UHGV virus genome: UHGV-0136548
DNA length: 19,325 bases
Reading direction: 5' to 3' (one strand)
From: a virus
Positions 8,723 to 8,788 of this stretch are shown here, piece by piece; within the stretch, counting starts at the first letter, position 1, and every line of letters starts with the position of its first letter. The position numbers and the translations under genes are program-made. Under the pieces are notes generated by a model. That model had not been told where the DNA came from, made no database searches, and was given only the letters and a program-made list of their open reading frames with translations.

Positions 8723-8739
8723 ATTGCTCTAATAATTCC
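8723..8739 (+). promoter_or_regulatory. 17-bp operator-like site (ATTGCTCTAATAATTCC; 14/17 to recalled C1 operator consensus)
   Basis: Exact 13-mer ATTGCTCTAATAA immediately after the stop of the 8020..8721 gene. Confidence 0.45.
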
Positions 8740-8747
8740 ATATTTTT

Positions 8748-8777
8748 AAAACGTGATGTACACTCATCACGTTTTTT
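8748..8777. terminator. bidirectional rho-independent terminator
   Basis: TTTTTAAA-ACGTGATG-tacact-CATCACGT-TTTTTT: 8-bp stem (8751-8758/8765-8772) with A-run and T-run flanks. Confidence 0.6.
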
Positions 8778-8788
8778 ATTAGAGCAAT
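8772..8788 (-). promoter_or_regulatory. 17-bp operator-like site in inverted orientation (minus strand ATTGCTCTAATAAAAAA)
   Basis: Reverse complement of the same 13-mer, overlapping the terminator T-run. Together with 8723-8739 it forms an inverted pair around the hairpin. Confidence 0.45.

Follow-up and report, generated by a model that had tools for sequence, protein, structure and literature searches.

The DNA considered here, called the window, is a stretch of 19,325 nucleotides from the virus genome UHGV-0136548 and represents a P1-like plasmid prophage. Between 7300 and 10900 it is 98.5% identical to P1, and a megablast search with this segment returned 19 full-length matches to P1-like phages, among them JL22 (99.3%), P1 itself (98.5%) and P7 (98.4%). 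The P1 record (AF234172) is collinear with the window from record position 73430 onwards. The element of interest lies in the 81-bp spacer between pmgQ and pmgR, both of which are on the plus strand, as are all of the flanking genes in the P1 record. The c1 gene is located outside the window. A Pfam search with PmgQ, PmgR and PmgS found nothing, and an Rfam search of the whole window returned no family. The features referred to below are as follows, with operator scores in bits on the C1-operator matrix described in the next section:

5099..5115, minus strand: O26 (former Op82), C1 operator of the same regulon; 24.5 bits; P1 annotation 78528-78544
6006..6022, minus strand: Op83 (Oppp), a weakened C1 operator; 14.5 bits
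8020..8721, plus strand: pmgQ, open reading frame, last gene of the pmgN-pmgO-pmgP-ppp-pmgQ operon; matches P1 pmgQ (record 81449-82150)
8723..8739, plus strand: OpmgRa (former Op86a), ATTGCTCTAATAATTCC; identical to the P1 site at 82152-82168; 20.8 bits
8724..8752, plus strand: PpmgR as predicted in AF234172 (sigma 70), with -35 TTGCTC (8724-8729), 17 nt and -10 TAAAAC (8747-8752)
8736..8764, plus strand: alternative candidate promoter, with -35 TTCCAT (8736-8741), 17 nt and -10 TACACT (8759-8764, the hairpin loop)
8748..8775, plus strand: hairpin AAAACGTGATG / TACACT / CATCACGTTTT, predicted intrinsic terminator of the pmgN-pmgQ operon, with covariation
8772..8777, plus strand: U-tract of six Ts, followed by ATT and overlapping Op86b; read from the sequence, invariant in all lineages
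8772..8788, minus strand: OpmgRb (former Op86b), ATTGCTCTAATAAAAAA; identical to the P1 site at 82201-82217; 19.3 bits
8793..8798, plus strand: Shine-Dalgarno sequence AAGGTG of pmgR, read from the sequence
8803..9021, plus strand: pmgR, open reading frame with its ATG at 8803; product 100% identical to P1 PmgR
9023..10285, plus strand: pmgS (420 aa), open reading frame, second gene of the controlled operon; product 99.3% identical to P1 PmgS
10864..10880, plus strand: OpmgT (former Op88), C1 operator of the same regulon; 25.3 bits; P1 annotation 84293-84309

Elsewhere, the window differs from P1 by a 4.7-kb insertion (11754-16490) at P1 position 85182, in the pmgT/pmgU region, which encodes, among others, an Ead/Ea22-like protein (12267-12851) and a DUF551 protein (13899-14783). 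Near the end of the window, the lxr region (P1 86834-87535) is replaced by about 70 bp (18142-18213).

The inverted operator pair and its conservation

An earlier note on this DNA had described a 13-mer, ATTGCTCTAATAA, repeated as its exact reverse complement across the spacer, and had matched the motif to the consensus of the P1 C1 repressor operator. Both observations are borne out. The 13-mer is found at 8723-8735 on the plus strand and, exactly, at 8776-8788 on the minus strand, and the 17-mers that contain it have the same sequence and location as OpmgRa and OpmgRb, two annotated operators of P1. GenBank (AF234172 / NC_005856) labels OpmgRa, the former Op86a, a “monovalent C1-controlled operator” that controls the expression of pmgR and pmgS; OpmgRb is the former Op86b, and both are annotated between pmgQ and pmgR, as here. 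Judged by sequence, the inverted 17-mers are the C1 operators Op86a and Op86b, and because this is the same element as in P1, with the same 17-mers, spacing, position and flanking hairpin, the operators are already known and not new. A literature search on Op86 and other Op names, with the P1 genome paper outside its scope, found no C1-binding evidence for the pair.

The pair had also been thought to be symmetric around the hairpin that it brackets, but the symmetry is inexact. The left 13-mer is separated from the stem by 12 nt and the right one by 0 nt, the center of the hairpin falls 6 bp to the right of the center of the 13-mer pair, and 4 nt of the right 17-mer are shared with the stem and T-tract.

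The sequences of all 20 annotated P1 C1 operators were extracted from AF234172, and a matrix was built from 18 of them, with Op86a and Op86b left out. Its consensus, ATTGCTCTAATAAATTT, is asymmetric and 17 bp long. On this matrix, the two sites exceed the mean best score of 12.8 bits in 100 shuffles of the window, and the other annotated operators score 14.3–27.1 bits, with the exception of Oc1b at 7.1. A scan of the whole P1 genome of the kind that the earlier note had proposed recovered every annotated operator but Oc1b, 19 of 20 in all, with scores of at least 14.3 bits, and just two unannotated sites reached this level; the 17-mer motif is thus far from random. In the window, ATTGCTCTAATAA with up to two mismatches occurs four times against 0.55 expected, a number reached in none of 200 shuffles. 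The two occurrences outside the spacer, at 5103-5115 (minus strand) and 10864-10876 (plus strand), correspond to P1 Op82 and Op88.

Several side observations concern other operator sites. The two unannotated P1 sites are ATTGCTATAATTATTTG (AF234172 1485-1501, plus strand, 18.0 bits), located between cre and c8 right past the -10 of the predicted Pc8, and ATTGCCCTAATGTATTT (17166-17182, plus strand, 17.2 bits), located inside darB; by their scores, they resemble real C1 operators. At 2628-2645 in the same record, Omat is annotated as a minus-strand 18-mer, although it is the plus strand that carries the operator-like sequence CATGCACTAATAAATAT; the annotated strand is probably an error in the record. 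Op83, upstream of the pmgN-pmgQ operon, reads TATGTACTAATTAATTT in the window (14.5 bits) versus CATGCACTAATTAATTT in P1 (20.7 bits). The upstream operon may be under weaker C1 control in the window phage, which may raise the role of the terminator and the Op86 pair as a barrier. Downstream of Op88, in the pmgT leader within 10864-10940, a G+C-rich hairpin, AACATGCCGC-aaggc-GCGGCATGT, lies at about 10912-10937 and is preceded by TTGATTTTTAAAAC, a motif that is also found after Op86a. This hairpin could be an attenuator or a 5′ stabilizer.

Conservation was assessed at two depths. The close set consisted of 82 loci from IMG/VR and GTDB that, together with the window, gave 83 sequences and 57 unique 701-nt slices. 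Eighty of these loci came from viral contigs at 99–100% identity and two near-identical ones from genome contigs, and they are useful for population variation rather than depth; deeper lineages were sought by tblastn against phage and plasmid collections. In the 57 slices, Op86a is invariant at positions 1–15, with one change each at positions 16 and 17, which carry little information, and Op86b differs in one singleton only. Variation in the region is highest between Op86b and the ATG (8789-8802), where 6 of the 14 columns are changed. The deeper lineages are represented by Cronobacter phage JK004, whose PmgS is 69.5% identical and whose C1 is 76% identical to that of P1, and by three Salmonella plasmids with a PmgS about 69% identical to that of the window. 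Both operator cores are unchanged in these elements, including positions 1–15 of Op86a, although the surrounding coding and spacer sequence has diverged.

The most polymorphic spot in the P1-like elements is the stretch of five bases from Op86b to the Shine-Dalgarno sequence (8789-8793), which reads TCTAC, TCTAT, TATAC, TTTAC, TCCAT, TCCAA, TCAAA and others next to an operator that is fixed.

More distant relatives extend the comparison beyond a single repressor specificity. One of them, the Citrobacter freundii plasmid NZ_CP056338, is a plasmid prophage of the P1 type. Its C1 homologue (25965-26678) is only 27% identical to P1 C1, and its PmgS-like protein is 25% identical. Another asymmetric motif, ACAGAnAATACTAATTT, occurs 15 times in this plasmid, where 1.8 copies are expected; most copies are intergenic by our own reading of the CDS tables, and together they appear to constitute a separate immunity specificity of the C1 type. 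Two of them, inverted, are found directly upstream of a 72-codon gene of the size of pmgR, with TATCAT but no hairpin between the operator arms. Measured between its outer ends, the pair spans 66 bp in P1 and about 44 bp in Citrobacter; the two lengths differ by about two helical turns, an observation limited to these two cases. Repressor and operator have thus diverged together while the paired design at the junction persisted, and this persistence provides good comparative evidence that the pair is functional. In the E. coli plasmid pS143-4, whose PmgS-like protein is 20% identical, a classical terminator is followed by an apparently single operator and no pair; the paired design is therefore not universal. 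Taken over all of these lineages, Op86a and Op86b are under purifying selection as sequence and co-vary with the repressor.

The hairpin and its direction

The hairpin that the earlier note had reported between the two operators is real. Its arms (8748-8758 and 8765-8775) form a perfect 11-bp stem around a 6-nt loop with a predicted energy of -13.4 kcal/mol (z = -5.6), of which a 7-bp core accounts for -8.5 kcal/mol. The stem starts 27 nt past the pmgQ stop codon, a position that fits the 3′ end of the operon.

Comparison between lineages shows that pairing has been maintained. In the Salmonella plasmids, the stem reads AAAACATGGTG/CACCATGTTTT and two pairs are changed on both sides relative to P1, one from G:C to A:U and the other from A:U to G:C. 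The JK004 stem adds three G.U pairs, which would be C.A on the minus strand. When the 12 distinct stem variants were aligned, 97% of the cells were paired, including two double-changed pairs and eight G.U cells, and the four unpaired cells were all singleton variants. This covariation score was reached by 1 of 500 shuffles, although the double changes are common to JK004 and the Salmonella plasmids and represent few independent events. Since the stem has been kept through two compensatory pair changes, the hairpin is considered a real structure.

Together with the six Ts that follow it, the hairpin is predicted to be a one-way, plus-strand intrinsic terminator of the pmgN-pmgQ operon. AF234172, viewed in four stretches that add up to the whole P1 genome, has no terminator feature at this place or anywhere else. 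An automated promoter and terminator scan reported neither the hairpin nor any promoter in the spacer; the hairpin was probably missed because the maximal stem absorbs four of the Ts.

The earlier note had called this terminator bidirectional, in which case it would also stop antisense transcription from pmgR-pmgS. A run of four As precedes the stem and the run of six Ts follows it, and in P1 and the Salmonella plasmids the stem is equally stable on both strands (-13.4 and -14.0 kcal/mol, respectively), all of which would suit a two-way signal. However, the minus strand offers only U4, which lies within the stem past the G+C core and is followed by A5, so that the tract of six is present on the plus strand only. 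Moreover, the JK004 stem retains -14.0 kcal/mol on the plus strand but drops to -5.8 kcal/mol on the minus strand, eight cells among the stem variants are G.U on the plus strand versus three that, by our own reading, would be G.U only on the minus strand, and the P1 record contains no minus-strand gene or annotated promoter downstream. A true bidirectional terminator is consequently quite improbable. A different view would take the whole spacer as mainly an RNA structure, in which the operator arms pair over 13 bp on top of the 11-bp hairpin to make a processing or stabilizing element, the resemblance to operators being secondary. The 81-nt stretch does fold to -26.9 kcal/mol with both stems (z = -8.7), but any DNA site present in two inverted copies would automatically give the outer pairing. 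What is conserved in the arms is the sequence itself, which shows no compensatory change and matches the consensus shared by some 20 dispersed operators. The arms in the Citrobacter plasmid have the sequence of its own operator, and there is no Rfam match. This reading is very improbable, and the arms are better taken as C1 operators on either side of a plus-strand terminator.

Promoter position and early expression

The earlier note had argued that any promoter of pmgR must overlap the operators, as a ribosome binding site at 8792 would leave no room for a separate one. The overlap holds, in that every credible candidate overlaps or abuts the sites, but the ribosome binding site is located at 8793-8798. 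Two candidates deserve consideration. The first is PpmgR as given in the P1 record, and the second has its -10 hexamer in the hairpin loop and would start at about 8769-8772. A literature search for mapped transcription start sites in P1 found none.

By hexamer score, both candidates are weak, at 6.2 for the loop candidate and 4.3 for the annotated PpmgR, and the scores, computed from sigma-70 hexamer frequencies, are only indicative. The loop candidate is nevertheless the top-scoring one in all three lineages (6.2, 9.2 and 8.7), its -10 being TACACT here and TATCAT in both JK004 and the Salmonella plasmids. None of the 83 close sequences shows a change in the loop, whereas 9 of the 22 stem columns vary among them. 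The geometry of this candidate relative to the operator matches that of four P1 promoters, Plpa (Op94), Pdmt (Op68), P2c4 (Op51) and P4cre (Op99e), none of which is labeled “predicted” in the record. In those promoters, the operator is oriented in the direction of transcription, as is Op86a, its 3′ end overlaps the -35 by 1–3 nt, and the -10 lies 37–41 nt from the operator start; for the loop candidate, the overlap is 4 nt and the -10 is at +37. The four differ from the present case in having a single operator and a good TTGnnT -35 hexamer, whereas the -35 of the loop candidate, TTCCAT, is poor and its start site coincides with a second operator in inverted orientation. The invariance of the loop, the occurrence of TATCAT between the Citrobacter arms and the geometry of the four P1 promoters all favor a -10 in the loop.

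In sigma-70 promoters, the final T of the -10 hexamer is nearly obligatory. The -10 of the annotated PpmgR, TAAAAC, lacks this T, and in JK004 it reads TGAAGC and loses the A at the second position too. With PpmgR, the operators and the terminator would be unchanged, transcription would begin near 8759, and Op86b, lying at about +13 to +29, would serve as a roadblock. PpmgR does appear in AF234172 as a “predicted sigma 70 promoter”, with its -35 TTGCTC inside Op86a, and the same use of the operator's TTGCTC as a -35 is seen in P1ban, which is labeled a sigma 70 promoter without the word “predicted”; furthermore, the TTTTTAAAAC motif recurs after Op88. Its score is nonetheless below that of the loop candidate in every lineage. 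PpmgR as annotated is therefore regarded as unlikely, and the loop candidate is favored over it with a modest leaning. The -10 probably has the wrong position in the P1 annotation, the likely one being the hairpin loop.

Published expression data bear on the timing of this promoter. In an RNA-seq study of P1vir, the log fold changes at 10 min were 7.39 for pmgO, 6.99 for pmgP, 6.95 for ppp and 7.05 for pmgQ, followed by 9.02 for pmgR and 9.99 for pmgS, against about 3–5 for late structural genes, and everything was near 11–12 at 30 min; these are fold changes versus time 0, not length-normalized, and come from a virulent mutant, which makes them uninformative on repression (PMC8201110 Table S1). 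The step-up in early RNA occurs exactly at the pmgQ-pmgR junction, placing pmgR and pmgS in the early class, and fits an independent early promoter of the C1 type at the junction.

The timing also counts against the sites being elements of a late promoter dependent on Lpa, which the earlier note had offered as an alternative. Beyond the AT-richness of the region and the morphogenetic role of pmgR, nothing speaks for this reading, and in contrast to the late genes, both pmgR and pmgS have high values as early as 10 min. A matrix made from the ten annotated P1 late promoters (consensus AAGTGACTTGCGTTACAAT) gives nine of them 18.7–22 bits and LPpmgL 11.4, but the best score in 8690-8810 is 4.9 bits. 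The same matrix does find LP26 in the window (5056-5074, 21.3 bits), and the arrangement typical of late promoters, a conserved -22 box (AAGTGACTT) and a -10 located ten bases further on, is not found at 8690-8810. The Lpa reading is almost certainly wrong, and the candidates for pmgR remain those of the sigma-70 type.

The late-promoter matrix also picked out a sequence, AAGTGACTGGTGATAACCT, at 3351-3369 on the minus strand (16.8 bits), within the 5′ part of gene 7, that has no annotation in the P1 record.

A probable compact operon junction

The pmgQ-pmgR spacer is very probably a compact operon junction in which a plus-strand terminator, a sigma-70 promoter and two C1 operators overlap. The hairpin (8748-8775) and its T-tract would end the transcripts that arrive from the upstream pmgN-pmgQ operon, and a sigma-70 promoter, most likely with its -10 in the hairpin loop, would drive pmgR and pmgS. 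RNA that starts from the loop promoter would lack the left arm of the hairpin and therefore could not form the terminator; for either promoter candidate, the start would fall inside the hairpin or past the left arm, and the new transcript would thereby be spared.

The promoter core would be bracketed by Op86a, in the direction of transcription, and Op86b, inverted. C1 occupying the two operators in a lysogen, possibly with cooperation or looping between them, would cover the start site and the -35 region and so silence the promoter. Whichever candidate is the promoter, the operators would lie over its -35 region and either the start or the early transcribed region. Residual transcription from upstream would end at the hairpin and the six Ts. 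When C1 is inactivated, or upon infection of a cell without C1, pmgR and pmgS would be turned on as early genes.

P1 also has bivalent operators, Op72ab at ban and Op99ab at c1, that likewise consist of inverted, convergent 17-mers at a promoter and bind the same repressor. A bivalent operator of this type was considered for the Op86 pair and set aside: the orientation fits, but in Op72ab and Op99ab the two sites share 6 bp and begin 11 bp from each other, whereas Op86a and Op86b are separated by 32 bp that hold the hairpin, and the record calls each of them “monovalent”. Outside the P1 group, cluster A mycobacteriophages such as L5 have “stoperators”, many dispersed asymmetric sites bound by one repressor, some of which are able to block elongating polymerase. 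The stoperators belong with an unrelated repressor family and have a single orientation within operons, and no membership in that class is claimed for the Op86 pair.

A more specific proposal is that the junction is a conserved, doubly operated promoter embedded in a terminator, with the -10 in the loop, so that a single 28-bp segment would end one transcript and start a second one that it could not terminate, and with the paired operators specifically required at this place. This proposal is tentative, its chances being put at slightly below even. If true, it would correct the position of the predicted PpmgR in the P1 annotation, which places the -10 at TAAAAC rather than in the loop.

What is added to the known operators is small: a conserved one-way terminator that has no annotation in the P1 record, a probable relocation of the -10, and an operator pair that appears to persist under a different repressor specificity. 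These points have little importance beyond P1 biology, but they may be of help in engineering P1 phagemids and in reading the P1 transcriptome. For P1 itself, pmgR is an essential gene, the deletion of which leads to unjoined heads and tails (PMC9024508). This head-completion gene would be an early gene under repressor control, rather than a late gene dependent on Lpa.
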